From the UHGV virus genome UHGV-0214148: DNA of 64,000 nt. One strand, written 5' to 3'. Origin of the DNA: a virus. Under the pieces are notes generated by a model. The model was not told the origin of the DNA. It saw nothing but the letters and a program-made list of their open reading frames with translations, and did no database searches. Position numbers and translations under genes: made by a program. Of this stretch, positions 6,901 to 60,733 are shown piece after piece; positions within the stretch are counted from its first letter, which is position 1; every line of letters starts with the position of its first letter.

Positions 6901-8541
6901 TTAGTAACGCACCGGTGCGGTAATTTCACCATTGCTAAGCAGTGTATAGGATGCCGACGGGGTAGCCAGCTTCACAATAGCTTCAGGTGCGCGTTGGTTA
7001 ATTGCTTCATAGATACCGACAATAGGTTCAAACGCATTACCGAAGGAGGAAATCTCTACGATATTGCGACCTTTTGCAGACGGGTAATCCGCAGGCAGCT
7101 GAATGGTGTAAGTTACACGGCAAATTTCAATAGCACGATCGTTAGATTTCAGACGGAAGTGCAGCTTACGAACAGAACGTGCAACCAGCAAGCACAGTTC
7201 GCGGAAGAAATCCGCAGCCGTGGTTACGCCATTTTCACCGATAGTGCGCGGGAACAGCGTGTCACGGAAGTATTCGAGATCGCTTAAGTTACAATCGAAT
7301 TGTACAAATTTCGTACCTGGAATTCCTTTACCGTAGTTTGTCGCAACAGCAATCGCGTTATGAACCAAAACAGTGAGCGTTGCGTTAAACTGCTGACAGA
7401 ACTCCACACAGCTTTGTTTCAGTGTATCCGGCTCCTCTGCCTGAGTATTGAAATATTGCAGTAGGCGCTCAGACATTTTACGGATGCGGAACACCTCATC
7501 GATCGTACGCTTCAGCATTTCTTCAGGATCGTCAATATCGCGAATATCTTCGATACCATCGATTGCCTGGCGGGTGGCAGTATAAAATTCTTGAAGGTAA
7601 GTTTTGCTCGAATCCGTACTCACCATCGGGAACAATTTATACTCGCTTTCGGTTTTCACCATCACATCCGCTTCATCATAAACGCAATAATCGACGTCTT
7701 CATTATCGATGATTTCGTCAACCTTTTCTGACCAATTGTGATGGCTAGAATACGGTGAATTTTTGATGCGTTCATTGAGTTCTTTCGGCGTAAGAATATT
7801 TTTCTTAATCTGTTCTCTAAGTTCGTGATCTAAATAGTCTTCCACAATTTCCACCCGGAAATGATCGATGATAGGTTTATTGTAACGTTCGACAAGTTCT
7901 TCGATAGTTTTCTCGTCGAGCTCACGCGGCTTGTTAGCTTCCACCATAGACTGCGAAACAGTCGGTTTAGGCTGTGCCTGTTGCACGGGTTGCTGTGCAG
8001 GCTGGCCGAAGTTACCTTGCGGTTGCGCTGTTTGCTTCTGTGCCGCTGTGCGCGGATCGTAAGTTGACATTGGGATAGAACCCCCTTGTACCGCTGGTGC
8101 TGGTTGTGGACTACCATAGCCGCTGCCTGGGAAGCTAGACGCTGGCATCGCTAAGCTCGGAGACCCACCCATTGCTGGGCCACCAAAAGTGCTCGATTGC
8201 GCCATAAGCTGTTTAGCTTGTACCGCATACTGATTTGCCGTACGGAATTCCTGTTCCAGCTGGCTGTGAATACGCGGGTCCAGTGGCTGCATACCACGCC
8301 CCAGTAAGTCACTATACAGCGTCGATTTAAAAGTTGCCAGAATCGCCGATGCAGTTTCGTTATCTGGACGACGGTTGTATACAAACCACGTGGCGACGGT
8401 AACGGCATTATCCATGTATTTGTCGTCATTCAATCCAGCAGCACGTGCTTGATTACAAAGATACGATAAAAGTTCATCACGACCACTGGAGATCGTGCTA
8501 TAGATGTGGTTACGAATTACGTCTTTATTGACAGTTGCCAT
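6901..8541 (-). CDS. hypothetical protein (546 aa) with internal Gln/Pro/Gly-rich linker
   Basis: ORF track; AGGAG Shine-Dalgarno upstream of ATG 8541; low-complexity segment GGPAMGGSPSL...QPAQQPVQQAQPKP. Confidence 0.85.
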   Translation of the reverse strand: MATVNKDVIRNHIYSTISSGRDELLSYLCNQARAAGLNDDKYMDNAVTVATWFVYNRRPDNETASAILATFKSTLYSDLLGRGMQPLDPRIHSQLEQEFRTANQYAVQAKQLMAQSSTFGGPAMGGSPSLAMPASSFPGSGYGSPQPAPAVQGGSIPMSTYDPRTAAQKQTAQPQGNFGQPAQQPVQQAQPKPTVSQSMVEANKPRELDEKTIEELVERYNKPIIDHFRVEIVEDYLDHELREQIKKNILTPKELNERIKNSPYSSHHNWSEKVDEIIDNEDVDYCVYDEADVMVKTESEYKLFPMVSTDSSKTYLQEFYTATRQAIDGIEDIRDIDDPEEMLKRTIDEVFRIRKMSERLLQYFNTQAEEPDTLKQSCVEFCQQFNATLTVLVHNAIAVATNYGKGIPGTKFVQFDCNLSDLEYFRDTLFPRTIGENGVTTAADFFRELCLLVARSVRKLHFRLKSNDRAIEICRVTYTIQLPADYPSAKGRNIVEISSFGNAFEPIVGIYEAINQRAPEAIVKLATPSASYTLLSNGEITAPVRY

Positions 8542-11559: not shown

Positions 11560-13854
11560 TTACTTACCAGCAGCAGCTTTGCCTTCGCCAGCAACGTTAC
11601 CTGCTACACCACCTTCGGTTTGTTTCTGACCGTTCTGTTCAACAGAAACATTGTAAGCCAGTTTTTCTTCAACCAGTTTGGTGATGCCTTTAACCCAGAT
11701 CAGACCAGTGATCGGGCAGTGGCAGATGTGCGCGTTACGCGGCTGTACGGCCAGCTCTTTAGAGGTAGAACCGTTACGCTGAATGTTGATGTTGGTAACC
11801 ATGATCGGAGACCAGAAGTGGTTACCCCAGTTCAGCACGTTGTAGGAACCATCGTCCGCAGTCGGAACTTTCAGGAACCATTGCAGACGACGAGTCCAGG
11901 AACCGTCAGCTGCGTTGTAGATACGCCAGCGGTCATCGTTGGTGGTGATCACTTCGTATTCGTAGCGATCGCCCAGCAGACGTTGGTCGCCCTGTACCAG
12001 CAGCAGCATAGATGCAGTCGGTTCGTCAGTTGCAATAACAACTTTCGGCAGAATGTCCGGATCGGCAGTGTACAGACGCAGCGCAGGAATGAAGCGAGAT
12101 TCCTGGATAGCCTGAGTTACCTGATTACCGATACGCTGTACCAGGCCCTGACGAGCGTTGATCAGTGCATCTTTGGTATCCAGGGACTGTACAACTTCAT
12201 CAACGTTGTAGTCAGACTCTTTGAACCACGGAGCAACCCAGTGACGGCCCAGACCACGAATGGCCGGTTTGTCCCACGGAGTGATCATGCTTGCAGCAGC
12301 GTTACGTACCGCTTCGGTGTAAGACAGCGTCTGAGTGATAGCCAGCTGTTCGTTACGGATGTTAACTGCGGAAATCAGGTCGTCCAGACGTTCGGTATCG
12401 TCGTATTCAACGCCAACCGGAGACTTGGTCAGGATCGGAGAACCGTATTGCAGTTTGTAGTTTTCTTGTTCCCAGATTGGGTCAAGCAGCAGACCCTGGG
12501 TACGACGGTTTTCGTTGGTACGAGTACCATCGAAGCGCCAGCCCATCAGTTCAAGTTTCAGACCGTCCAGGATAACTTTGCCGGTACCAGATTTGGTATC
12601 AACTTTGTTACCGGTAGCGTCGTACAGACCTTCGATTTCCAGTTTGTGACCAGCGATGTCAACTTTACCACCGAACTGACCGGTAGTGAACAGAGACATG
12701 TTGATGGTGATCACATAACGCAGGGTGTAGGAGTTCTGTTCCAGTGATTTCAGTGCCGGAATAGCTTCGCCTTTCCAGTCGGTGGTTTTCGCATTCAGAG
12801 AGAACGCAGTACGACGGAATTGCAGTACCAGCTCACGGCCATCACCTTCAGCAGGACGCTGGAAGGTTGCGAACTGCATGTCACGAACGTGCAGTTTGAT
12901 GAATTTACCTGCTTTCGCTTCTTCGGTCGGTTTACGTACGGAAATCAGCAGGCTGCCCAGAGCACAACCCGGTGCGATTTCATCAGTTTCGTCGTAACCT
13001 TCCTGAACGATACCCGGATGCGCAGACAGCTGGAACAGGTTCAGAGTGTCTTTAGCAAAGCTCAGGTAGTTAGTCGGGTACGGAGGTACACGACCCAGGC
13101 GAACAGATTCGTTCGGTACCAGTTCTTCGCTTACGAAGTATTCAGCGTTTTCACCGGTTTCCATTACGTAAGGAACGATGTTGATCGCTTCGTCCTGAAG
13201 AACGGTGTGGTCAGTCAGCGCTTCGTGCAGGTTACGACGATGATCTTCAACAACGTCTTTGGTCAGTAACGCGTGCATGACACCACGAGAAACGGTGGTC
13301 ACTTTGGTACGTACGGTAATACCAACATCGTTGGTGTCAACGGTGATGGTCGGGAACAGAGTCTCAGCAAAACGAGACTGAGTTTCCAGAGCACGTACGT
13401 TCAGCGTCCAGGTCAGACCCAGGTTTTTGTCGTAATCTTTGTTGGTGTAGTATTCCTGAGCAACAACCATACGCTCTTTGCCCCAGTCGCCGTTACCAGC
13501 TTGGGAACCAGGAATCGCAACGTCCAGGTTAAAACGGCTATGGAATTCTGGCTTAGCGTATTCTTGCGCTACTTTTTCTTGCAGGTCCATACCGTGACCA
13601 GCAGCACCCAGAATCATTGCAGAAGCAACTTCCGCAGCGTGGGACATTTTCTTACCGCCAGCAAACGCGTTTGCGTAGTGCTGTGCAGCATCGTCACGCA
13701 GGGTACCAAAAACTTTCGTGTTGCTACGTACAGACTCACCAGCAACGATGGTGTTCCACATTTCGCCAGCACTGTTGTTACTAATGACGCTTTGTACCAG
13801 CGAGTTACCAGCTTGTACGAGTTTCTCCAGATTAGAGATTCGGGTATCTTTCAT
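11560..13854 (-). CDS. putative major capsid protein (764 aa)
   Basis: ORF track; strongly biased highly-expressed-type codon usage (produces a 375-aa antisense ORF artefact); strong terminator downstream; size matches phiKZ-like jumbo-phage capsid proteins. Function is inference. Confidence 0.55.
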   Translation of the reverse strand: MKDTRISNLEKLVQAGNSLVQSVISNNSAGEMWNTIVAGESVRSNTKVFGTLRDDAAQHYANAFAGGKKMSHAAEVASAMILGAAGHGMDLQEKVAQEYAKPEFHSRFNLDVAIPGSQAGNGDWGKERMVVAQEYYTNKDYDKNLGLTWTLNVRALETQSRFAETLFPTITVDTNDVGITVRTKVTTVSRGVMHALLTKDVVEDHRRNLHEALTDHTVLQDEAINIVPYVMETGENAEYFVSEELVPNESVRLGRVPPYPTNYLSFAKDTLNLFQLSAHPGIVQEGYDETDEIAPGCALGSLLISVRKPTEEAKAGKFIKLHVRDMQFATFQRPAEGDGRELVLQFRRTAFSLNAKTTDWKGEAIPALKSLEQNSYTLRYVITINMSLFTTGQFGGKVDIAGHKLEIEGLYDATGNKVDTKSGTGKVILDGLKLELMGWRFDGTRTNENRRTQGLLLDPIWEQENYKLQYGSPILTKSPVGVEYDDTERLDDLISAVNIRNEQLAITQTLSYTEAVRNAAASMITPWDKPAIRGLGRHWVAPWFKESDYNVDEVVQSLDTKDALINARQGLVQRIGNQVTQAIQESRFIPALRLYTADPDILPKVVIATDEPTASMLLLVQGDQRLLGDRYEYEVITTNDDRWRIYNAADGSWTRRLQWFLKVPTADDGSYNVLNWGNHFWSPIMVTNINIQRNGSTSKELAVQPRNAHICHCPITGLIWVKGITKLVEEKLAYNVSVEQNGQKQTEGGVAGNVAGEGKAAAGK

Positions 13855-49555: not shown

Positions 49556-51655
49556 TTACTCAATGATAGTCGCGGCCACCGTATTGTCGTATAACGACGC
49601 CGGACGTTTACGCGACGTGTAGAAACGCACGTTGTCCAGGTTTTTCTGTTGGCCTTCGAATAACAACATCGGTACAGCTGAACGCATCGCAATCAACGTA
49701 TTGTGATCCTCGAAACGTTTGCCATCCATCACATCAGCATCTTCACTATCAAACCCAACCGCCGGGAAAGGATTGGTCGGTGATTCAACGCGTGATATCG
49801 CCAGCATAATCGCGATGTGTGTCATCGGAATACCACCGAGCTTACGTTGGATATATTTAAACACATCAAATAACGCGTGCGTACATTGCTTTTCTGTAGC
49901 ACCGCGCATCTGAACCAGTGTCGTTGGTTTTACCTTACCCGACTTCTTGCTCAAGCGCATTGAGTCATCAGAGAACTGTTCGAAAGTATCCGATTTATCA
50001 GATGCAACCGAACGAAGTTTCAATTCTAACCCTGCTACAAACTCCGCCATAGATTCAGACCGATTCGTATAAATTAGTATCGGCCAACTCGGCTTCCAAC
50101 CTTTCAGAGGAATCCGTACCAGTTTCTTCGACGGAAACGTAATGTTATCACGCTGCTTCAGGAAGAAATGCAAGAAGGCTTTCGAGAAGTTACCACAAAC
50201 CCCCATACGGACGTCAATGGGATCTTCAGCCAACACATTCCCAGCTTCATCCAACCGCAAAAAGGTCAGTTCGTTAATCTCCGGCAATGCCGTTTCGTCA
50301 ATCACTTCCAAATCGTCGTGATACGCGATTTGGCTGATTTCAGAATAGACTTCATCAGAAATAACGAGTTGGTATTCATCCCAATTACCGTACTGTGGTT
50401 TCTCCCGTAAACTCAACCCTTTTACGGAGTTGTGTTTATACTCCCCAAGATAATCCCGCATTCTTGGGGTCAGCACCAGATTCAGCAGATAACGTAAGAA
50501 GTCCAAGTGCTTCGTTGAGAGAATCCCCTGCGTACCCTTTACAGATATCGAGGTTGAGGCCAAGTGACCTGGGGATGTTCCCGGCGAAAGGTTATAAATC
50601 AAATCACCCATGCATGTTGCACAAATGCTTTGACGTGCCATCCCCTTACAACACATCGCGGTACGAAACTCAATAGGTTTGCCTAAGACTTTCTCAAACT
50701 CCCCTTTCTCGAATCGTAGCCACGGGCCACCCACACCTTCAAAACGATAACGCATCCCTACCATCGCATCGTACTTCTTACGCTCCAGTTTACTTTCTGT
50801 AAACGTGTGGCGATGAACATGATGCGTACCACAATCGTCGTATTCGAAATACATTAACACGTTGGCTGCTAACTGTAGCTTACGTGACGCATATTCCGCA
50901 TCGGCGATTTTATCGGTATTATACAGGTGAGAACGTGACGTTGCTCCCGCTTCTTTCAGACGACTAATTACAGAATGTAGACCCGTAAAGAAACCTTCCC
51001 ATACCTGGTTAGAATAAACACGAGAATCAATCTCTGATGTTTTCCCGCGTATATACGCCTGAAGAACCTGGTTCATTTTGATGGTCTTATCCAAGACCGA
51101 CATCACCACAGGGTTTAAACGAAGTTGTGGGTCTTTGAAGATATCTTCGATAAGAAGATACGCTTCCTCAACCATATCCCGACCTTCTTCGTCGTACCCA
51201 GTAGGATACATTTGTGCCCACTGATGAATCTGCGTAAAGTTTCGGTGTTGGTAAATTTCCATCATCGTATCGTAGTCAATCGTGACGCAATACGATAACA
51301 AATTTTTCACCGATAAATTAAACGCATCCGCATAAACGTGCTGCTGTAATAAATAACGGGTGTCTGCTAAATCCACACCCGCTTTACGAGCCGCTACAGC
51401 TGCCAATGACATAAACTTCAGATGTGCGTCGTCTGTAGCAGTATCGCCATGTTTATACGCCATTTGCGAACTGATTGGGATCTGCGGATAAAATCGTGTT
51501 AGCCCCCAATAAGGCCAACTGATTTTAATGTGACGTCCTGACATGTTTAAGGTTACCCCGTCATCAAACGTCACTTCATATCTGCCGCGCAATAGCCACA
51601 CCTGATCCGAGTTCAGTTTACACAGATCACGCACGTGAACTGGAGTGCCCTTCAT
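49556..51655 (-). CDS. possible RNA polymerase beta-prime-like subunit (bridge-helix region)
   Basis: ORF track; coupled to beta gene (TAATG). Segment KGTQGILSTKHLDFLRYLLNLV resembles the beta-prime bridge helix (G.RKGLADTALKTA.SGYLTRRLV). No NADFDGD motif present. Confidence 0.4.
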   Translation of the reverse strand: MKGTPVHVRDLCKLNSDQVWLLRGRYEVTFDDGVTLNMSGRHIKISWPYWGLTRFYPQIPISSQMAYKHGDTATDDAHLKFMSLAAVAARKAGVDLADTRYLLQQHVYADAFNLSVKNLLSYCVTIDYDTMMEIYQHRNFTQIHQWAQMYPTGYDEEGRDMVEEAYLLIEDIFKDPQLRLNPVVMSVLDKTIKMNQVLQAYIRGKTSEIDSRVYSNQVWEGFFTGLHSVISRLKEAGATSRSHLYNTDKIADAEYASRKLQLAANVLMYFEYDDCGTHHVHRHTFTESKLERKKYDAMVGMRYRFEGVGGPWLRFEKGEFEKVLGKPIEFRTAMCCKGMARQSICATCMGDLIYNLSPGTSPGHLASTSISVKGTQGILSTKHLDFLRYLLNLVLTPRMRDYLGEYKHNSVKGLSLREKPQYGNWDEYQLVISDEVYSEISQIAYHDDLEVIDETALPEINELTFLRLDEAGNVLAEDPIDVRMGVCGNFSKAFLHFFLKQRDNITFPSKKLVRIPLKGWKPSWPILIYTNRSESMAEFVAGLELKLRSVASDKSDTFEQFSDDSMRLSKKSGKVKPTTLVQMRGATEKQCTHALFDVFKYIQRKLGGIPMTHIAIMLAISRVESPTNPFPAVGFDSEDADVMDGKRFEDHNTLIAMRSAVPMLLFEGQQKNLDNVRFYTSRKRPASLYDNTVAATIIE

Positions 51656-53892
51656 TATTCATCGCCCCTTTTCATTTTCACCAATTCAAACCCTTCACAG
51701 TTGTGGATGTTTTTCATCATCCTGTCAATCTGCGAATCCCCTAACGGGAATTTATTCCGGTCTACTAATGGACCCGGATTAGATGGGGTTTGAGATCGAT
51801 AAAGCCCTACTAAAATCTCACGATGTACCGCAGGGTTATTTGCCCTGTCGTGAACTTCTTCGTAGTTACCTGGACCATAACCCGCTAACAGTCGTTCTTC
51901 CGAAGGACCAGCCCATTTTAGCGTTTTATAGTTTATCGGATACGAGCCACGACCTTGGTTAGACGCGTCTATCGTACCCAGATAATTCAGATACATTGAC
52001 GAGATACTGGAAAACTCACGACCTGTTTTATCCAGACGTAATGTCTCCACACCACCTACGTAAAACTCATTTTTTGTCCATTCCTGTTTACCATCGAAAT
52101 TAGTAATCAGGAGTTTGGATTTACGCGGTTTAAATTCACCCAACCGTTCACTAATATCGACTGGTGTGTCGTCAAGTTCATGTGGTAAGTAAATACGGAT
52201 TGTAAAATCGTAAATCTCTTTGAAAAGTTCGCGTTGTAAATCCTCCGTAGGATGTGTTACCTGTAGTGTGTTGGCCCATTCAGGATTAAAGCGTGACAGA
52301 TAATCCATCAGAATTTCCCAACACTCACTGATACGACCTTCGTCCAGCATCGGTTTAAGACGCATCTTCAACTGCTCAGACGCAGCTGACCAATACATGT
52401 GGAATAATGCTGCATAAGTCGAGCGACGAATTACAGCGTTCATCGAACGTAAAACGTGAACACGTTCACCGAATTCGTTAATCGGCATCTGTTCAACGGG
52501 TAATACACGACCAACAATCCCTTTCGTGCCCGAGCGGTCGGTAATCTTAGACGACACCGTTACCGGGATCGGATAACGAACAGCAATACGAATGGTATAC
52601 GTGTTGATGGGATCGCTGAGTCCACGTTGTACTGGTGAGGTCAACTTAGAAAGAATCTGCTGACTGACATTTTCTTTACCGTATTCACCACGACGAATTG
52701 CTTCATCAATCACCACGCGTATCTCTTCACGAAACTCGTGATAGACCTCGTACGTTTCAGAAGCGAACGCTTTTTCCAACAACACACACGCTTTCGGCGA
52801 CCAGATAATATTTTTGTCACGGGACATCGAGAAATAGAATCGTACGATGGCATTGTAATAGTCTTTCAATGCTAATGCGTATTTATCCAGTTCTCGTTTG
52901 TTCTCTTCGGTACAAGAAATATTGTTAGCACCATTCGCGCAAGACGTTTCATCACGCCACACCTGGATATCGACGATACGTGTACCGCTACGTTCCATCA
53001 GTTCTTTGTCGCCTGCAAGGCGTGCTTTATAGTGAACGGGATCGGCATCCACATATTCGCAGCTATCGAAGAACGGAGAGACGTGTTGGGTTTCCCCAAG
53101 CGACGCATCAATTGCACCGTAAAGCTCATCGAAACGACGCGATGCAATGACCAACCCATCGTCACGAATAGCCTCCCCCACATCCGGGAAATACCGTGGG
53201 ACGCGATTACCGTTCGGATCGATATAACCGTAAGTATCCAGTAAAAACTCGTCTTCACGTAGCGTCTTTTCAACGATTTTCAAACCATAACCGTGGAGTT
53301 TTTGGGCGGCGTACTCAGAGATGGTGTAGGAATCCTCGATGATATCAGGATGCGAAATCGTAACGGTTGGTAACACGACGCTATCGGCGTACTCGCCTTC
53401 CACCATACACGACATCGTTGTAAGGATTTCATCCTTTTCCAACTGATCGGTTTCGCCACGTAAAATACTACGCAGTTTCATCGACTCACGTTTCTCAGAT
53501 GAGAAGATGTTGTCGTGGTTAGTATAGAAATTAATCTCCAGCACATCTATCATGGTTTTACCGCCCTTCATTTCTGCACGGCGGAAGAAGATAGCATGTT
53601 CCAACGCTTTAGAATCCCCACGACGTCCATAACGTGTAAACGTCGCGCGGCGCTGACGACCGTCTTTGGTCATATAGTGGCAGATGCTACCGGGATCTTC
53701 TACAACGTCATTGAACAGAAAATCGTGGTAGTTTATATCAGCCCCTGTAAAATGTGGCGATGGTTCAGGATTGTCGATAGGGACCGCAGACTTCATATGG
53801 TTGCCTACCATCGATGCCCTTGCACCTGATACTTCGGTGATATTAATCTCACGGTCAGCCACACTGCTCATTAGCTCTACTGGCGTTTTCAT
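51655..53892 (-). CDS. multisubunit RNA polymerase beta subunit, C-terminal half
   Basis: ORF track; GEYADSVVLP matches beta NGYNFEDS; RSGTKGIVGRVLPVEQMP...LRSMNAVI matches beta GNKGVISKINPIEDMP...SRMNIGQ. AAAGGAG Shine-Dalgarno; promoter-like motif ~22 nt upstream. Confidence 0.8.
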   Translation of the reverse strand: MKTPVELMSSVADREINITEVSGARASMVGNHMKSAVPIDNPEPSPHFTGADINYHDFLFNDVVEDPGSICHYMTKDGRQRRATFTRYGRRGDSKALEHAIFFRRAEMKGGKTMIDVLEINFYTNHDNIFSSEKRESMKLRSILRGETDQLEKDEILTTMSCMVEGEYADSVVLPTVTISHPDIIEDSYTISEYAAQKLHGYGLKIVEKTLREDEFLLDTYGYIDPNGNRVPRYFPDVGEAIRDDGLVIASRRFDELYGAIDASLGETQHVSPFFDSCEYVDADPVHYKARLAGDKELMERSGTRIVDIQVWRDETSCANGANNISCTEENKRELDKYALALKDYYNAIVRFYFSMSRDKNIIWSPKACVLLEKAFASETYEVYHEFREEIRVVIDEAIRRGEYGKENVSQQILSKLTSPVQRGLSDPINTYTIRIAVRYPIPVTVSSKITDRSGTKGIVGRVLPVEQMPINEFGERVHVLRSMNAVIRRSTYAALFHMYWSAASEQLKMRLKPMLDEGRISECWEILMDYLSRFNPEWANTLQVTHPTEDLQRELFKEIYDFTIRIYLPHELDDTPVDISERLGEFKPRKSKLLITNFDGKQEWTKNEFYVGGVETLRLDKTGREFSSISSMYLNYLGTIDASNQGRGSYPINYKTLKWAGPSEERLLAGYGPGNYEEVHDRANNPAVHREILVGLYRSQTPSNPGPLVDRNKFPLGDSQIDRMMKNIHNCEGFELVKMKRGDE

Positions 53893-53955: not shown

Positions 53956-54279
53956 ATGTTAGACAATTTTATTACCCTAGAAGAATTCATACCTGCGCCT
54001 TACACCACGACATGGAAAGTGATGCACGATTACACAGACTATCTGCGTAAACACCCGAAAACTAAAATAGAAAATGTTGACCCACGCTACAGTTGGCCTG
54101 AGGTCCACAATTTCTACGCCTACTGTAAACTCAAAGGTTACGCCGATATCATTATCTATCCGATGATGCTATTAAACGGGCTAGAAGACCCCATGAATTT
54201 CACCCCTGAAATCACGCAACTAATCGTACCCGACGTCGGAACGGTTAGTGAGATTATTAGCACCATCGGTAATGATTAA
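53956..54279 (+). CDS. hypothetical protein (107 aa)
   Basis: ORF track; AGGAA Shine-Dalgarno upstream; bidirectional terminator downstream. Confidence 0.65.
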   Translation: MLDNFITLEEFIPAPYTTTWKVMHDYTDYLRKHPKTKIENVDPRYSWPEVHNFYAYCKLKGYADIIIYPMMLLNGLEDPMNFTPEITQLIVPDVGTVSEIISTIGND

Positions 54280-54316: not shown

Positions 54317-55672
54317 TTAACGCGTAAATGCCGAAGTTGCAAATCCACCGAAACTGCTGTTCGTTGCAAATGCTGAACTCGTGCTAAACGCGCTAGTCCC
54401 ACCGACATCCCCGCTGAAAGAATTATTCCCTCCACCAAAGGTACTTGCCAAAGAGCCTCCGGTATTCCCTACACCAAAAATACTCTGACCACCGAAAGGT
54501 GACACCTTGCGCTCACCACCAAACGCATCCACAACAGAAATTCGACTTACCATACCGTTGGCAGGGCTAGTTGTTCCGTGTTGCTCAGCGTAACGTTGCA
54601 TCGCTGGCGTCAAATTCCCATAAGGACTTCGCGCGGCCATGTTACGTTCACGAGCACGGAAGAATTCCATCGGATCTGACTTATCCGCTTTATCCGCATC
54701 CGATGCACGTTTTTGTGGAATCTGCTGCGGAGCCTGCGCACGATCGATACGGAAATCATGCGCCGTGGTATCACGTTCAGGGCTGTCAGAACGTGGGCCG
54801 GTGTTATACGGTAAAGTCTGAATAACGTTATCGTAAATATCCATATTGTCCAGCTGAGAAATCCATTCATCTTCCAACGGACGTAAAGATGTGTGGTCGC
54901 GCAATCCCTTAACGACATTATTGTAATTCACAACGTACTGCGCCCAGCCACGTGCTAAGCAACCGAAATACGGACGCGAATCATTAGACCCCGTTACGCT
55001 CGGATACCAACCGAACACGGTGGTCAGTAAACGGTGGATAATGATTTTGTCTTGTTTACGTTGAAGCTTCGCAGAGAAGTACATTGCAGTACCATCTAAC
55101 GATTCTTCTTCGAACATATTCCGATAATTAGCTACGCGGTTAAACTTCACGCCGTCGATAACTAAATCAGATGCAATAAAAAGCTGGGTGATCTTGTGCT
55201 TTTTATCTTTTTCCAATTGTCCATAGACGAACGCTTTCACCGCTTCCCAGGATTTCACCAAACGTTCGTCGAACGTCGGATCTTTCATCCCTTCGCAAAT
55301 CTGTTCTGTTAAGAACTTCTTGTAGGATGCAGAACGTACTGCTTTACCACTTGCCCCCGTTTCCAGAATCGCGTCGATTAATGCAAAGGAACGAATGAAC
55401 AGGTTCGCATTAATGGATTTCTTCAGGAAACGAATTGTCCCTGATTCACCTGCCAGTACCGATTCACACAGTGGATGAAATGCCTGACATTCACGACCAT
55501 CATCGTCTTCCATACCACGCTTAATCATCGCTGGGGTGGGAAGCGCCAAACGGCGCTTCACTTTGTTATACGTAAACTCTGCCGGTTCACCACCGTCACG
55601 AGTGAGTAAATCGTTTTCAAAATCGAATCCTTGTGATTTAAGAAACGATTTGTAGAATTCAATAATTTTCAT
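54317..55672 (-). CDS. hypothetical protein (451 aa) with Gly/Ser/Phe-rich C-terminal tail
   Basis: ORF track; AAGGA Shine-Dalgarno; C-terminal ~60 aa FGGQSIFGVGNTGGSLASTFGGGNNSFSG...FGGFATSAF. Confidence 0.8.
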   Translation of the reverse strand: MKIIEFYKSFLKSQGFDFENDLLTRDGGEPAEFTYNKVKRRLALPTPAMIKRGMEDDDGRECQAFHPLCESVLAGESGTIRFLKKSINANLFIRSFALIDAILETGASGKAVRSASYKKFLTEQICEGMKDPTFDERLVKSWEAVKAFVYGQLEKDKKHKITQLFIASDLVIDGVKFNRVANYRNMFEEESLDGTAMYFSAKLQRKQDKIIIHRLLTTVFGWYPSVTGSNDSRPYFGCLARGWAQYVVNYNNVVKGLRDHTSLRPLEDEWISQLDNMDIYDNVIQTLPYNTGPRSDSPERDTTAHDFRIDRAQAPQQIPQKRASDADKADKSDPMEFFRARERNMAARSPYGNLTPAMQRYAEQHGTTSPANGMVSRISVVDAFGGERKVSPFGGQSIFGVGNTGGSLASTFGGGNNSFSGDVGGTSAFSTSSAFATNSSFGGFATSAFTR

Positions 55673-55694
55673 TTAAGAGTCCTTGATTAATCTT

Positions 55695-57401
55695 TTACTC
55701 GCCGAATGCACCAAAGCCAGACACTGGCGCAGAGGTTGACATATCGCCACCACCAAAGCTACCGAAGCTACCCAGGCTCGTAGGTGCAGACACAGGGGCA
55801 GTTGGGATATTCGACAGGATATTCGAACGGTTCTGACCACGGTTGAATTCTTGGTACCCTTCTTCCACTTTGTTCATCAGCTGCGCTGTTTCTGCAGCTA
55901 ACTGGTTCGTGTACTGAAGGTCAGTCGTTGTACCACAATGCAGACGTGCTTTCATGAACGACGCATGAGTATAATACTCAGGTAGCTCACCATCGATTTC
56001 GATTTCAATACGTGAAACCACCCCAACGATACACGTTACGGTCATCTTACAACGAATACGGTTGTGTTTAGTCACTTGCAAGAACACGCCTTGTAAGTCA
56101 CTTAAGAAGCGACGTGCTAACACATCCGGTAATCCGTCTTCAGTTAATGCCCCAACGTTGTGTTTTGACACTTGCAGCAGAGGAGGTGTTGCAATATCCG
56201 CCATACGGTTATCGTAGAAGAAAGTCACTTCGCCGATAAGGTTACGAGTGACCACAGGCCCCAGTAACATGGCTAAATCAAATGCCACCAACGAACCCTG
56301 AGTAGAATAGTTGTTACGTCCTACCCAATCATCGGTGCGTTCAATTTCACCAAAACCACGACGGGCTGCGACAGCCAGCGAGTGCGCAATTGCAGCATCC
56401 ACATCTTCGGGATTAATCACCGCGTTACGCAGGTCGCACAGTTTGAATGCTGCACGGTTCGCAACGTTCCAACCGCTAGTCATATCGGACGTGGCGTTGG
56501 ATATGGCGGTTCTAAAAGCCTTCACCAACTCGTAACTGTTGAAATTACGCATCACACCAATCTGGCTAAGTTCAGATTCTACCCCAAGAGAATGATCTCC
56601 TGCGAAGAAGCTGTCTACTGCGCTCAACTCCGTTTCAATCCCCATGGTGTTAATAAAGGAATTGGAGATCGCCGTCACGAAAGATTCTGGTCTGGTTAAT
56701 TGACTAGACATCAACTGTGGCGCACGCTGGCAATTAGCGGAGATAACGGTGTTGTTATCCAGCTCAATCTGCTCACCTGCTTTCACCACTTTACGCACCA
56801 TATCAGCTGCTTTCGCGGTAGAAATAACGTCAATGGTGTGCTCTACATAGCTGTCTGCGGTTAATGTCTTGGACAACACATAGTTGTCTATCAAACGGAA
56901 GGAATCCGGGTTGATACGACGTCCACCAAACGCATCGGTGATATACGTACATTGTAACCCGTATATTTCGTTGATATACAGAACCATGTCATCCGGCAGG
57001 TGATTAAACATGGATCGCTCTGCCTGGGACGTATACCCGGAAACAACATAACGTGTTTCTTGAGTCCGTGTGTCATTTAACGAGTTCGAAACAATAATCG
57101 CCACGAAGTTATACACACCAGTATCGCGAGAATTATACGCAAAATGGATTGGTTGCGATTCGTTATCACTCACGTTAATGAATGGACGTTCAATGCCAGT
57201 TGGGGTATTGTCGAAACCCACAATCTGCCCCAAGGCTTCTTGATAAGCCCGAGAACCTGTTGCTTTATCACCATGTTCTGCAACCACATCCACTAACTCA
57301 TCCAAAGCGTGCTGCGATTCAAAGAACCCAATGCGACGACGAATCTGCTCTGGGATTTCGTACACTGGATACATTTGTAGTTTCAAAAGTTTCATTGCCA
57401 T
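55695..57401 (-). CDS. hypothetical protein (568 aa) with Gly/Ser/Phe-rich C-terminal tail
   Basis: ORF track; AAAGGAG Shine-Dalgarno; C-terminus SLGSFGSFGGGDMSTSAPVSGFGAFGE. Confidence 0.8.
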   Translation of the reverse strand: MAMKLLKLQMYPVYEIPEQIRRRIGFFESQHALDELVDVVAEHGDKATGSRAYQEALGQIVGFDNTPTGIERPFINVSDNESQPIHFAYNSRDTGVYNFVAIIVSNSLNDTRTQETRYVVSGYTSQAERSMFNHLPDDMVLYINEIYGLQCTYITDAFGGRRINPDSFRLIDNYVLSKTLTADSYVEHTIDVISTAKAADMVRKVVKAGEQIELDNNTVISANCQRAPQLMSSQLTRPESFVTAISNSFINTMGIETELSAVDSFFAGDHSLGVESELSQIGVMRNFNSYELVKAFRTAISNATSDMTSGWNVANRAAFKLCDLRNAVINPEDVDAAIAHSLAVAARRGFGEIERTDDWVGRNNYSTQGSLVAFDLAMLLGPVVTRNLIGEVTFFYDNRMADIATPPLLQVSKHNVGALTEDGLPDVLARRFLSDLQGVFLQVTKHNRIRCKMTVTCIVGVVSRIEIEIDGELPEYYTHASFMKARLHCGTTTDLQYTNQLAAETAQLMNKVEEGYQEFNRGQNRSNILSNIPTAPVSAPTSLGSFGSFGGGDMSTSAPVSGFGAFGE

Positions 57402-57431: not shown

Positions 57432-59060
57432 TTATTGATTAAACCATGCTACTTCTTCGCATTTCTTTCTGTTTTGAATTAACAGAAATTCTGCTAACAT
57501 GTTCTGAAGTCGCGGATGAGGTGAATAGTCCAACATCACTGTCCCACACCGTAACATTCTGGCTGCTTCCGGTGTTGCCCTGAGATTGAAGTTGAACGGC
57601 GCAATATGTTCACGAACCAACAAGCTGAGAGAATCCTTCAATGTTGATTGTTCGTAAGTATTACGATGTTTACGGTATGCTTGTGGATAATATCTATCCG
57701 TTTTTATTTTAATCTCATTATCGATAGGCTCGATGGGATACCCGCCATTTAGTGGTGCCCGGATCATTTCACAACTTAACAACTGTGCAATCTCAGGCAT
57801 TCCGTAATAGATGTAAACGGCTTGGGATATACCCATCGCGTTCTTAAACGCTTCTGAGTCGATTTCCTTGTATGTACGACGATCTGCAAATCGGTGCATC
57901 ACTGCCGCCACCAACCATTCGTAGAGTTCGTAGAACGGATATTGATGATTAATGTTGATGGAATCTATCAACACTTTCACATCAGCGGGAGCAATATCGA
58001 GATTCAAAGCACGTACCGCACGACGATAGTCATTAAAGAATTCTTGGGTACGAACGAATTCCTTCATTGGTGCTTTAGTCCGAGCTTGAACCAGGTCAAT
58101 CGACGAAGTTTTCCCCTTCTCGCCATTGAACATGATTTTCTCAGGATTCGCTTTTAACATCACGTTTTGGCCGGAAATTTTTCCCGCGAAGCCCGTTTCG
58201 ATTTCTTGTCGAATATTGAAATACATCCCCGCCACGATGTTGTTTTCAACCATCGTACCTGGCGGTAGTTCGGCACCGATTAACTTCATTGCAATTAAAC
58301 GGATAACGGCGAACGCTATGATGTATTCCTCTACCATATCCGTACCGTAGCCACAGATAGATGCCAGGACGGTAAGGTTTGCAGTATTGGGTCCTTTACT
58401 CCCTCCGTCCTGAACTTTCGAAATCACCGACACTAAAAACTCACGCAACTTTGTAATGGCTGGCAGTGTAGCAATCTCGGTATCAGACAACAACTCCATG
58501 CAGTAGGTCAGGTTATAAACACTTTTGCGCTTCGACTCAACAGAAGCGCGTGTTGCAGGAAAAGCGTCCAAAATCAAGAATACGGGAATAAACGGTTTTG
58601 TCATCAAAGACAAAATCACCAATTCGTAATAATCTTGTACGATATACGTCATCTCTTTTGGATAATTCGACGACATCTCTTCGTACGTTTCGTGGACGTT
58701 TTGAGGAATCCACACCGAACCGTGTGGATAAAGCTGGCGGAATCTATCTGCGTGATGAAATTTAGCAATTCTCGCGACGAGCGTGGGGACGTGTTCACGA
58801 ATAACTTCTGGGGGTTCATTAGCTAACAACTCTAATTCTTCGTAAACTGAAAACAGTTCGCTTTTCTCTTCAGGCGTTAAAGTTGACCAATAACGCTCGA
58901 TTTCCATGAACATGATTTTATCGTGCGTTACGATCTGTCCGAAACTATCGCGTACGTCTGGCACATTCACGTCTTTACGTCCATTTCGGAAACCATTAAA
59001 CGCGACCTCTTTTTCGCCGTACTTTATCACTAAACGGTCACGATTCTTTTCAATGCGCAT
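57432..59060 (-). CDS. hypothetical protein (~542 aa)
   Basis: Track ORF starts upstream at a non-ATG codon (59144); ATG at 59058-59060 (MRIEKNRDRL) has GGAG Shine-Dalgarno 9 nt upstream and lies ~30 nt downstream of promoter-like motif copy 4. Confidence 0.75.
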   Translation of the reverse strand: MRIEKNRDRLVIKYGEKEVAFNGFRNGRKDVNVPDVRDSFGQIVTHDKIMFMEIERYWSTLTPEEKSELFSVYEELELLANEPPEVIREHVPTLVARIAKFHHADRFRQLYPHGSVWIPQNVHETYEEMSSNYPKEMTYIVQDYYELVILSLMTKPFIPVFLILDAFPATRASVESKRKSVYNLTYCMELLSDTEIATLPAITKLREFLVSVISKVQDGGSKGPNTANLTVLASICGYGTDMVEEYIIAFAVIRLIAMKLIGAELPPGTMVENNIVAGMYFNIRQEIETGFAGKISGQNVMLKANPEKIMFNGEKGKTSSIDLVQARTKAPMKEFVRTQEFFNDYRRAVRALNLDIAPADVKVLIDSININHQYPFYELYEWLVAAVMHRFADRRTYKEIDSEAFKNAMGISQAVYIYYGMPEIAQLLSCEMIRAPLNGGYPIEPIDNEIKIKTDRYYPQAYRKHRNTYEQSTLKDSLSLLVREHIAPFNFNLRATPEAARMLRCGTVMLDYSPHPRLQNMLAEFLLIQNRKKCEEVAWFNQ

Positions 59061-59088
59061 TTTAAAATCTCCAGGAATAACATAGTCG

Positions 59089-59112
59089 TCCACTAAGATA
59101 AAATCTATCTCA
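59089..59112 (-). promoter_or_regulatory. promoter-like conserved motif, copy 4
   Basis: Minus-sense TGAGATAGATTTTATCTTAGTGGA, ~29 nt upstream of ATG 59060. Confidence 0.45.
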
Positions 59113-59193
59113 GATAACTTCGACTGTATTCTACACACATACACGATAAAGAGCCCCAGGATATCCTGGGGCTATGTTATAGTTTTACATTAT

Positions 59194-59838
59194 TTAGATA
59201 ATATCGTCAAAATCGTTAGTTGGTGTTGGGGCTTTTGCACCGGATTGGTTGTTATAACCGCCGCCATTGCCGCCGTTATTGTAACCACCACGACCGTAAC
59301 TACCACCACCCGCATTATTAAACTCACGCGGTTTGTAGTTGTCACGGAAATCTTCCAGGAATACATCCGCATTTTTCAGGAACGCGCGTAGCTGACGCTC
59401 TGCCAGTTCCAGATCGGAGACCAGTTGTCCATTACGGAAAACACGATAACCTTTCGGATAAGTGAAATAGAATTTCTTCTGACGCGCACCAACCCCTGGG
59501 ATCTCGCCGCTCAGTGCAAAGAACGGTGTCAGGTTTTCATCACGACCTACGTGTAAGCTAACCGGTGCCTTCTTACCTTTTGCATCTTCCCATTTGAAAA
59601 CAACTTTTTCGGGTTTCTGCATCACCGTACGTAGGGTTTCAAAGATATCAACGCAAACGGTATAGCCTGCGGTGAAATAAAGACCTTCGCCTTTACCAAA
59701 GGAGTAGTGGAATTTCATCAGTTCCACATCACCATTGAACTCGTTCAGTTCAATGCCCAGTTTACGCGTACGGCCCTGTTGATCCGGCTCAGTCTGCGGG
59801 TAAAGCCATTTCTCTTTAAGGAAGTTTTTATTGACCAT
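59194..59838 (-). CDS. putative single-stranded DNA-binding protein (SSB-like)
   Basis: ORF track; C-terminal Gly/Asn/Tyr-rich linker ending in acidic tip NDFDDII, like the SSB C-terminal tail (DFDDDIPF); AGGA Shine-Dalgarno. Confidence 0.5.
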   Translation of the reverse strand: MVNKNFLKEKWLYPQTEPDQQGRTRKLGIELNEFNGDVELMKFHYSFGKGEGLYFTAGYTVCVDIFETLRTVMQKPEKVVFKWEDAKGKKAPVSLHVGRDENLTPFFALSGEIPGVGARQKKFYFTYPKGYRVFRNGQLVSDLELAERQLRAFLKNADVFLEDFRDNYKPREFNNAGGGSYGRGGYNNGGNGGGYNNQSGAKAPTPTNDFDDII

Positions 59839-59896: not shown

Positions 59897-60733
59897 TTAG
59901 CGAGACAATCTACGAAGGAACTCAATGACAAAGGGTTCGTTAACCAACTTCAAACAACTGTAAATACGATCCATAGTCGTATCTTGTCGCCAGTGGTATT
60001 TCTCGGCAGTCTTCAAAACCACCTTACGCACCTTTCTGTCAAGTGGGGAGAACATATACCCATCGCCAAATAGCGTTAGAAACGCTTTGTTAAACGGGAT
60101 CTGTTCGGGTTTACCGTAAAGCTTCGTGTACCATTCTAACCGACCTTTAATCTTACCCGTGTGTGATTCTAGCAGATTCAACAGCGGGAAATCTTTGTAG
60201 GCCAGTAGATCGGCAGGGTAATGGGTTAAAATCAATGTGTCATGCTGCCCTTTCGGAAACACATCAAAGCTTTTGAATTGTTCAGGGTATTTTTCACCGT
60301 ATAACTTTAACGTATCGTGTTCTAGCGCATTAAAGTGATGCTGGTTAGGTGTCATCTTTTCCTGCCCTCCTGCAATCGTACGGAACGCTGCTTCGGGGAA
60401 GATTCTGTTCGCACTTTTATACGTACAGATATAGGGGACACATAGCACCGAAGGCGCTACCGCTTTCGCGGTAGCGTTAATAGAAGCAATATCTTCTTCA
60501 ATCGATGCCAGCAACACTTCAGGTGTTAATCGTTCACGATTCGTTTCAAACGCGTAAAACGCGTTACGGAACAACGTCCGTAGATTCAGGTAAATATCCT
60601 GATACTTGTGGATAGGGACAGGACCCTTCCAATCGGCATATTCTCCTTCATGGAGAAGCCCTTCAAAAGCCAACGATGTAGCAATTGACATTTGATAAAA
60701 CCCAAACGTGCGATCAACACTGATTGGGGTCAT
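59897..60733 (-). CDS. hypothetical protein (278 aa)
   Basis: ORF track; ATGA overlap with upstream gene. Confidence 0.75.
   Translation of the reverse strand: MTPISVDRTFGFYQMSIATSLAFEGLLHEGEYADWKGPVPIHKYQDIYLNLRTLFRNAFYAFETNRERLTPEVLLASIEEDIASINATAKAVAPSVLCVPYICTYKSANRIFPEAAFRTIAGGQEKMTPNQHHFNALEHDTLKLYGEKYPEQFKSFDVFPKGQHDTLILTHYPADLLAYKDFPLLNLLESHTGKIKGRLEWYTKLYGKPEQIPFNKAFLTLFGDGYMFSPLDRKVRKVVLKTAEKYHWRQDTTMDRIYSCLKLVNEPFVIEFLRRLSR

Follow-up and report, generated by a model that had tools for sequence, protein, structure and literature searches.

The import of proteins into phiKZ's phage nucleus depends on gp69 (PicA/Imp1), an essential, cargo-selecting import factor which forms a punctum at the nuclear shell (PMC11087766; 10.1101/2024.03.27.586873; PMC12908238; PMC12571901) and is bound by Imp6/ChmC (10.1101/2024.03.27.586873). 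The import function of PicA is known for phiKZ, PhiPA3 and Goslar (PMC11087766; 10.1101/2024.03.27.586873). In PhiPA3 the proteins gp61 (ChmC), gp63 (PicA) and gp64 are located on the nuclear shell and are absent from the virion proteomes (PMC10643120). The tail of ChmC is required for the formation of condensates in vitro (PMC11077065), and the lattice contacts of the shell protein chimallin (ChmA) are made by flexibly tethered C-terminal segments (PMC9365700). As to the route by which folded proteins pass the closed chimallin shell, a pore, a flippase or an unfoldase have been considered (10.1101/2024.03.27.586873). Here we describe two adjacent genes at positions 54317-57401 of a stretch of 64,000 nucleotides from the virus genome UHGV-0214148 (the whole stretch is referred to as the window). 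They encode the orthologues of PicA/Imp1 (protein A) and of phiKZ gp70/PhiPA3 gp64 (protein B), both of which end in a low-complexity tail predicted to be disordered. Across phages the tails of PicA and gp70 are similar to each other within one genome, and the make-up of both tails shifts jointly.

Protein A (568 aa) is encoded at positions 55695-57401 and protein B (451 aa) at positions 54317-55672, both on the minus strand and separated by a gap of 22 nt in which no terminator-like site was detected. The tail of protein A comprises the residues 535-568 (APVSAPTSLGSFGSFGGGDMSTSAPVSGFGAFGE; positions 55698-55799, minus strand). Each of its four Phe residues precedes a Gly, compared to a mean of 0.94 phenylalanine-glycine (FG) dipeptides in shuffled tails (p=0.0015), and 2 of the 34 residues are charged. 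The tail of protein B (aa 381-451; positions 54320-54532, minus strand) contains ten Phe in 71 residues, an enrichment over the 4.6% Phe in the open reading frames of the window (binomial P=0.0015), and five FG dipeptides (shuffle mean 2.26, p=0.04). Six of its residues are charged, and its spacers are made up of Ser, Gly, Thr, Asn and Ala. Among 53 greedily called open reading frames of the window, the genes of protein A, protein B and a ChmC-like protein have C-termini that rank within the six of lowest entropy.

In AlphaFold2 (AF2) models built on family alignments aa 535-568 of protein A and most of protein B from residue ~291 onwards, including aa 385-451, have a predicted local distance difference test score (pLDDT) of less than 50. 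Hence, the FG tail of protein B forms the last part of a disordered region (~160 aa), which follows a folded N-terminal domain (aa 1 to ~288; positions 54809-55672, minus strand) with pLDDT values above 90 up to residue ~285 and predicted disorder after ~290. Within the disordered region a short motif is conserved (aa ~350-385; positions 54518-54625, minus strand), the consensus of the family alignment being LTPAQQ...SL..A.GG with a nearly invariant L380; AF2 predicts weak helices at residues 350-365 and 380-383. A preliminary description of this DNA had reported two adjacent proteins with Gly/Ser/Phe-rich, FG-containing C-terminal tails. Both the proteins and their exact coordinates were confirmed, and the disorder assumed for the tails agrees with the AF2 prediction. 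The tail length of about 30-60 residues given there falls short of the disordered region of ~160 aa in protein B.

Low-complexity stretches of a different kind occur elsewhere in the window. The gene at positions 3434-6151 (plus strand) encodes a virion structural protein of 905 aa (phrog_3004) with a long acidic low-complexity tail (GGGSDFGGGSEDDGG...DETDTGTDDNADETL), which is unlike the FG tails. A protein of 546 aa (phrog_8185), encoded at positions 6901-8541 on the minus strand, contains an internal Gln/Pro/Ala-rich low-complexity stretch near residue 165.

Protein A is an orthologue of PicA/Imp1 (phiKZ gp69) according to its PHROG profile, gene order and fold. It matches phrog_3141 over aa 1-536 (1.5e-127), the tail falling outside the profile match, and phiKZ gp69 matches the same family (2.7e-179). 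Since a direct BLASTP comparison between protein A and phiKZ gp69 was not significant (E=1.2), the membership of protein A is based on the PHROG profile which it has in common with gp69, on synteny and on its fold. Its AF2 model (predicted template modelling score 0.76) retrieved 15 full-length matches in a Foldseek search against BFVD (E 6e-24 to 2e-17, TM-score 0.6-0.74). These are uncharacterised proteins, and the named ones originate from large (jumbo) phages including a RAY-like one. No Pfam family was found for protein A or protein B at E<=0.1, and sequence-profile searches of both proteins against the PDB gave chance-level matches only (E ~0.5). The scan of viral contigs with the PicA alignment recovered the SPN3US-like clade only.

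The gene order is that of the chimalliviruses. Five consecutive genes of the window (60733 to 54317) match the PHROGs of phiKZ gp66-gp70 in identical order. The whole block comprises SbcD, gp66, ChmC/Imp6, gp68, PicA/Imp1 and gp70, followed by the beta subunit of the non-virion RNA polymerase (nvRNAP), and its gene order is identical in SPN3US, PhiPA3, phiKZ, RAY, Goslar, Vibrio phage pVp-JHP1101, SA002, Phabio and Derbicus.

Protein B is an orthologue of the nuclear-shell-associated protein known as gp70 in phiKZ and gp64 in PhiPA3. Protein B and phiKZ gp70 match phrog_3520 at 2.4e-123 and 4.1e-122, respectively, and BLASTP aligns them with each other over the N-terminal domain (2e-11). Further matches of protein B obtained by tblastn were PhiPA3 gp064 and proteins of Goslar and RAY.

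The source phage is an uncultured SPN3US/phiEaH2-like chimallivirus. A near-identity search with the DNA of positions 54317-57401 against 50,697 phage records gave no match. The nearest cultured relatives are Erwinia phage phiEaH2 (62-72% protein identity) and Salmonella phage SPN3US, the identities to both together ranging from 56 to 72%. Two metagenomic contigs (L012 and L014) are 97.6% identical to the window at the DNA level. Approximately 8 kb past the window end, on the upstream side, both contain the gene of a phrog_8316 protein. This family includes SPN3US gp244, which has been published as a diverged chimallin homologue (PMC9365700); the ChmA gene itself thus lies outside the window. 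The finding agrees with an occurrence of the PicA family in chimallin-encoding phages only. That the phage forms a nucleus-like compartment, a guess in the preliminary description, is well founded because the window carries the chimallivirus block and the 97.6% identical contigs carry the chimallin homologue. The suspected relation of both proteins to the shell is likewise supported by their orthology to PhiPA3 gp63 (PicA/Imp1) and gp64. The comparison with chimallin that had been suggested is not the relevant one, because proteins A and B belong to the chimallin-associated proteins without being homologous to chimallin.

The SPN3US-like chimallin (L010, positions 3769-5622; L014, 275-2122; L011, 1649-3529) is assigned to phrog_8316 with the label "unknown function", a family separate from phrog_4795, the "nuclear shell protein" family of phiKZ. 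PHROG-based annotation pipelines therefore miss the nuclear shell gene in the SPN3US-like clade.

The tails evolve considerably faster than the folded parts of both proteins. A sister lineage with 81-85% identical proteins retains the FG pattern at an even higher density (5 FG, p=8e-5, and 9 FG, p=5e-5), while the tails share 54% (A) and 38% (B) identity compared to 83% (A) and 86% (B) in the folded parts. Among phages with 96-98% identical DNA (window positions 54320-54400; L014 and L015, positions 11730-13109) gp70 comprises either 451 or 459 aa, the tails differing by a single FG unit of eight residues (QPQSSFGG). The gp70 tail therefore grows and shrinks by repeat units on very short timescales.

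In the SPN3US-like clade, which was sampled with 34 homologues of protein A and 43 homologues of protein B from the protein database, a tail is present in every member and its flavour is lineage-specific: the tails are Ser/Gly/Phe-rich (FG) in the lineage of the window and of the GGLGG/LLGG type in SPN3US, phiEaH2 and Asesino, whereas Caitlin-like phages carry GNSLLD, CR5- and Derbicus-like phages NPF and one metagenomic lineage SLFG/GLFG. Beyond this clade the gp70 tail is Met/Gln/Pro-rich in phiKZ, PhiPA3, RAY and SA002, contains GLFG, TLFG and SLFG in Phabio and is Arg/Asp-rich in the Vibrio phage. PicA tails are less universal; both the SPN3US-like clade and the phiKZ-like phages possess them, and the one of the Vibrio phage is charged.

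The records P0035-P0038 and P0082-P0086 (Salmonella phages SPFM5/7/8/9/10/12/14/15/20) were excluded from the sample. Their proteins look like shuffled SPN3US proteins made up of many short, misordered pieces of high identity, which suggests assembly or annotation artefacts in these GenBank records.

A profile scan of 1.84 billion representatives with the protein B family yielded 1102 proteins, including 510 with E<=1e-10. Among the best 150 of these 1102 matches, most cover the N-terminal domain only. All of the 147 gp70 representatives inspected among these best 150 carry a C-terminal extension of 88-301 aa (median 161), which is of low complexity in the tails that were read. Uncharged tails prevail (102 of 147) over Arg/Asp-rich (37) and intermediate ones (8). 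The most enriched hydrophobic residue of the uncharged tails is Met in 40, Tyr in 26, Trp in 23, Phe in 11 and Leu in 2 cases. The tails are conserved as a property and not as a sequence, and FG is a minority flavour of a family-wide feature. Thus, the reading of the FG tails in the preliminary description stands insofar as related phages possess tails and the orthologues are not virion components, but FG itself is not conserved. Since the relatives use Leu, Met, Tyr, Trp or Arg/Asp chemistry instead, an FG-specific mechanism cannot be the conserved one.

About a quarter of the gp70-family tails (among P0092-P0142 and others) consist of extreme Arg/Asp repeats such as RDRDRD or DRRDDRR, and in both phages of this type that were checked (L006 and L039) the PicA tail is charged as well. 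These repeats resemble the RD/RS domains of eukaryotic RNA-processing proteins.

The joint shift of both tails is apparent from the pairs found in individual phages. FG-type tails are paired in the lineage of the window, GL-type tails in SPN3US and GNSLLD-containing tails in Caitlin-like phages. In PhiPA3 and Phabio the tail ends read ...ADLGLL and ...GGGLGLL/...GGGLGLI; both tails terminate in ...FNY in one metagenomic lineage and both are Arg/Asp/Ser-rich in the Vibrio phage. Furthermore, ten diverse gp70 representatives from outside the SPN3US-like clade were chosen by their gp70 tail type alone, and the C-terminus of the upstream gene was then read from their own contigs. Most of the ten loci mirrored the tail type, with L036 and L037 not clearly doing so. 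At the PicA position and in gp70, respectively, the motif NNPFG occurs in both tails of L035 and PMMPM in both tails of L042, SLFG is paired with SLFG/SMFG in L033, RFNFGV with SRFGF in L041 and NPAPMQY with QMNPY repeats in L038, and both tails of L039 are charged.

Over 26 lineages the composition of matched PicA and gp70 tails was more similar than that of mismatched pairs (cosine 0.742 versus 0.595), and matched tails shared more 3-mers (3.23 versus 1.53) as well as 4-mers (1.42 versus 0.28), with permutation p<=1e-5 in all three cases. When the SPN3US-like clade is removed, the signal persists (n=17, p ~5e-5). In 13 lineages of the SPN3US-like clade and phiKZ, for which all four proteins were available, the C-terminal tail of ChmA follows that of gp70 (p=0.001) and, to a lesser degree, that of PicA (p=0.04). 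In these 13 lineages the tail of ChmC tracked neither the gp70 nor the PicA tail (p=0.48 and 0.08), which argues against a simple genome-wide composition bias. Moreover, the other low-complexity stretches of the window are acidic or Gln/Pro-rich and not FG-like. Recent gene conversion between both tails was rejected as the source of their similarity since the only stretch common to the tail-coding DNAs of proteins A and B comprises 22 nt with 77% identity.

The tails might nevertheless be passive linkers. In this case they would be disordered and under no constraint, serve as spacers or entropic bristles and change by slippage, and they would resemble each other within a phage due to a shared mutational or codon bias on low-complexity DNA instead of an interaction. 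Their rapid divergence (38-54% versus 83-86% identity), the repeat-unit indel between near-identical phages, a short tandem repeat in the PicA tail DNA and a composition that is extremely labile over the family would all be expected in this case. However, unconstrained spacers would hardly be retained as extensions of 88-301 aa in 147 of 147 inspected representatives of a family with more than 500 clusters, and the FG dipeptides exceed the expectation from the tail's own composition. The exact motifs common to both partners (NNPFG, PMMPM, GNSLLD, SLFG) likewise go beyond bulk composition, and a shared bias is not reflected in the ChmC tail, in the acidic tail encoded at 3434-6151 or in the Gln/Pro-rich stretch of 6901-8541, none of which has the flavour in question. 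Taking these points together, passive linkers seem rather unlikely.

We give about an even chance to the explanation that co-evolving, weakly cohesive tails retain PicA and gp70, or concentrate them, at the chimallin shell or import site. Each of both proteins consists of a folded body and a flexible, mostly uncharged tail, in which hydrophobic "stickers" (Phe in this case, for the most part in FG dipeptides) alternate with spacers of Gly, Ser, Thr and Asn. The tails may act as weakly cohesive, multivalent sticker-and-spacer regions which contact one another and probably also touch the flexible C-terminal tail region of chimallin, and these contacts would keep PicA and gp70 together at the shell or import site. 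The sticker chemistry (Phe, Leu, Met, Tyr, Trp or Arg/Asp) would be interchangeable provided that the partners match, the matching being what selection preserves, and FG would represent the flavour of the window lineage without being a conserved requirement. An interchangeable but matched chemistry would explain why the tails change jointly between lineages. The assumption of cohesive tails fits in with the location of the orthologues at the shell (PMC10643120), the in vitro condensates depending on the ChmC tail (PMC11077065) and the tethered C-terminal segments of chimallin (PMC9365700).

Several observations weigh against this explanation. The PicA proteins of RAY, SA002 and Goslar have a C-terminus without a low-complexity tail; since PicA is essential in Goslar (PMC12908238) despite lacking it, import does not require this tail in every phage. 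The gp70 protein of phiKZ failed to co-purify with Imp1 when both were co-expressed in Escherichia coli, and it is listed as nuclear (10.1101/2024.03.27.586873), as opposed to the location of PhiPA3 gp64 at the shell (PMC10643120). Moreover, gp70 is absent from the hits in the examined table of the phiKZ antisense screen, and the transposon study does not name orf70 in its main text. The permutation p-values of the tail comparison still include residual phylogenetic relatedness, and the ChmC control comprises 13 lineages only, in which the ChmC tail may be fixed by a constraint or function of its own. Finally, the functional statements on proteins A and B are transferred from distant orthologues (~20% identity to phiKZ).

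Cohesive tails could also have a more far-reaching role. The C-terminal tails of PicA/Imp1, gp70 and perhaps chimallin may jointly fill an opening of the chimallin lattice at the import site as a small, cohesive and selectively permeable phase into which PicA-bound cargo partitions, the stickers (Phe, Met, Tyr, Trp, Leu) changing in all partners together. This would be a minimal analogue of the FG-nucleoporin barrier that arose by convergence with the nuclear pore. The importer and its neighbour indeed carry uncharged disordered tails in which xFG motifs alternate with Ser, Thr, Asn, Gly or Gln spacers, and xFG tails recur in distant lineages, namely Phabio (GLFG, TLFG, SLFG), P0077 (SLFG, GLFG), P0088/L033 (SMFG and SLFG, in both proteins), P0089/L034 and L041; the way in which cargo crosses the shell is an open question (10.1101/2024.03.27.586873). 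However, tails of 34 and 71 aa with four and five FG dipeptides are short for a barrier. Phe is the enriched residue in only ~11 of the 102 uncharged gp70 tails, 37 of the 147 tails are highly charged by Arg/Asp, and the PicA proteins of RAY, SA002 and Goslar lack such a tail. Proteins A and B have no Pfam nucleoporin match, neither a pore structure nor a karyopherin-like receptor is known in the phage-nucleus system, and cargo is chosen by folded surfaces of PicA (PMC11087766). We therefore regard a barrier of this type as improbable.

A tethered docking peptide was considered as well. In this case the extreme C-terminal tip would mimic CTS2, a C-terminal segment of chimallin, and plug into a chimallin pocket, the low-complexity part serving as a leash. 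Chimallin itself assembles via flexibly tethered C-terminal segments (PMC9365700), a hydrophobic residue is located within the last three positions in 88% of the gp70 representatives, and the tips of ChmA, PicA and gp70 are alike in L025 (SSFNF/DSFNF/GGFSF) and L030 (HFTF/PFSF/NFTF), as are those of ChmA and PicA alone in L027 (SFTL/NFTL). However, over the 13 lineages the C-terminally anchored similarity of the tips was not significant between ChmA and PicA or ChmA and gp70 (p=0.12-0.53) and marginal between PicA and gp70 (p=0.027, last eight residues), and the tips differ in the lineage of the window itself (...TDWRPTF, ...GFGAFGE and ...TSAFTR). A docking peptide thus appears to be quite improbable.

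That proteins A and B are ordinary virion or structural proteins is hardly conceivable: some structural proteins of phages do contain low-complexity segments rich in glycine, and the virion protein encoded at 3434-6151 has an acidic low-complexity tail, but phrog_3141 and phrog_3520 carry the label "unknown function" without any head, tail or packaging annotation, the genes A and B are located among early, non-virion RNA polymerase genes, and the PhiPA3 orthologues are absent from virion mass spectrometry (PMC10643120).

The matched tails of PicA and gp70 bear directly on the import question and offer a lead to how proteins enter the phage nucleus, with gp70 emerging as a candidate third partner. 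C-terminal tags on PicA or gp70 may disturb a functional end. The literature searched, which covered PicA, Imp1-6, Imp7, the shell interactome and a recent review, contained no description of disordered tails in PicA and gp70 or of their co-variation. Within these limits the tails, and above all their co-variation, appear to be undescribed.

The genes surrounding A and B belong to the same block. Upstream of gene A, at positions 57432-59144 (minus strand), lies the gene of a sigma-like nvRNAP subunit similar to phiKZ gp68, with which it has phrog_3209 in common; its start is uncertain (570 aa from a GTG codon versus 542 aa in database gene calls), and a role in the nvRNAP has been reported for this type of protein (10.64898/2026.09.21.753271). 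It is preceded by the ChmC/Imp6 orthologue of 214 aa (positions 59194-59838, minus strand; phrog_3284, 5.2e-51) and this in turn by the counterpart of phiKZ gp66 (positions 59897-60733, minus strand; phrog_3229). On the downstream side, the beta subunit of the nvRNAP (positions 51655-53892, minus strand; phrog_3295, 4.2e-251; Pfam RNA_pol_Rpb2_6) is the neighbour of the pair.

Between the gp70 orthologue and the nvRNAP beta subunit a small conserved gene of 107 aa is located on the opposite strand (positions 53956-54279, plus strand; phrog_3455, 4.3e-33). A gene of ~105-127 aa is present in the same position and orientation in SPN3US, RAY, Goslar, pVp-JHP1101, SA002, Phabio and Derbicus and also in all metagenomic loci with a sufficiently long flank. 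Furthermore, a strong terminator-like hairpin with a stem of 9 bp, seven GC pairs and a T-rich tail was detected at positions 59152-59173 (minus strand), immediately behind the ChmC-like gene and ahead of the gp68-like gene. This hairpin could put the level of ChmC above that of the downstream PicA and gp70 genes.

The orthologue of ChmC ends in a Gly/Asn/Tyr-rich tail with the tip NDFDDII. A tip of the form [DE][FY]D[DE][FILMV][FLV] was found in almost all ChmC homologues looked at, and this acidic-hydrophobic end resembles the C-terminal tip of bacterial SSB. Because Imp6 binds Imp1, the tip of ChmC could be a docking motif.

The tails of proteins A and B call to mind the GLFG, SxFG and PxFG domains of nucleoporins. 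In both cases a folded anchor is positioned at the boundary of a compartment with selective protein import, and the attached region is disordered (here according to prediction), largely uncharged and composed of xFG motifs with spacers rich in Ser, Thr, Asn, Gly or Gln. The nucleoporin FG arrays comprise tens of repeats over roughly 150-700 residues. The tails of proteins A and B thus share with them the predicted disorder and an FG content above composition with polar spacers, but not the array length or a sequence relationship: homology is absent, the tails contain four to ten Phe with spacers of 3-14 residues, and FG is not conserved in the relatives.

With the segments CTS1 and CTS2 of chimallin the tails of proteins A and B have in common that they are flexible C-terminal regions, and the CTS make the lattice contacts (PMC9365700). 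The ChmA tails contain alignable conserved segments (e.g. ..F.LSG.G....GSDFG..), to which the tails of PicA and gp70 cannot be aligned. ChmC/Imp6 (PhiPA3 gp61, phiKZ gp67) is shell-associated, encoded in the same gene block and equipped with a disordered low-complexity tail; phiKZ gp67 matches phrog_3284 (6.1e-80), the family of the window orthologue encoded two genes upstream of gene A. A condensate tail of the ChmC type is defined by an Asn/Gly-rich stretch with a subsequent acidic cluster of Ser, Asp and Glu. In every lineage considered, the ChmC tail is Asn/Gly/Tyr/Gln-rich and its acidic tip is conserved; it keeps its flavour, whereas the tails of proteins A and B switch between lineages, are Ser/Gly/Phe-rich, lack an acidic cluster and are not attached to a known RNA-binding body.

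The closest counterparts are the orthologues themselves. PicA/Imp1 of phiKZ (gp69) and PhiPA3 (gp63) shares phrog_3141 and the length class of 548-568 aa with protein A as well as a gene position with the gp68-like nvRNAP subunit on one side and the gp70 homologue on the other, upstream of the nvRNAP beta subunit; the fold of protein A also recurs in other chimallivirus proteins encoded at this position. In contrast to the FG-type tail of protein A, the PicA tails of phiKZ, PhiPA3 and Phabio are rich in Gln, Asn and Pro and have a hydrophobic tip, the one of the Vibrio phage is charged, and RAY, SA002 and Goslar have no PicA tail. Similarly, phiKZ gp70 and PhiPA3 gp64 combine, like protein B and at the same gene position, a folded N-terminal domain of ~290 aa with a long low-complexity C-terminal region, which is Met/Gln/Pro-rich in these two phages as well as in RAY and SA002, Gly/Leu-rich in SPN3US and Arg/Asp-rich in the Vibrio phage, but Ser/Gly/Phe-rich and of the FG type in protein B.

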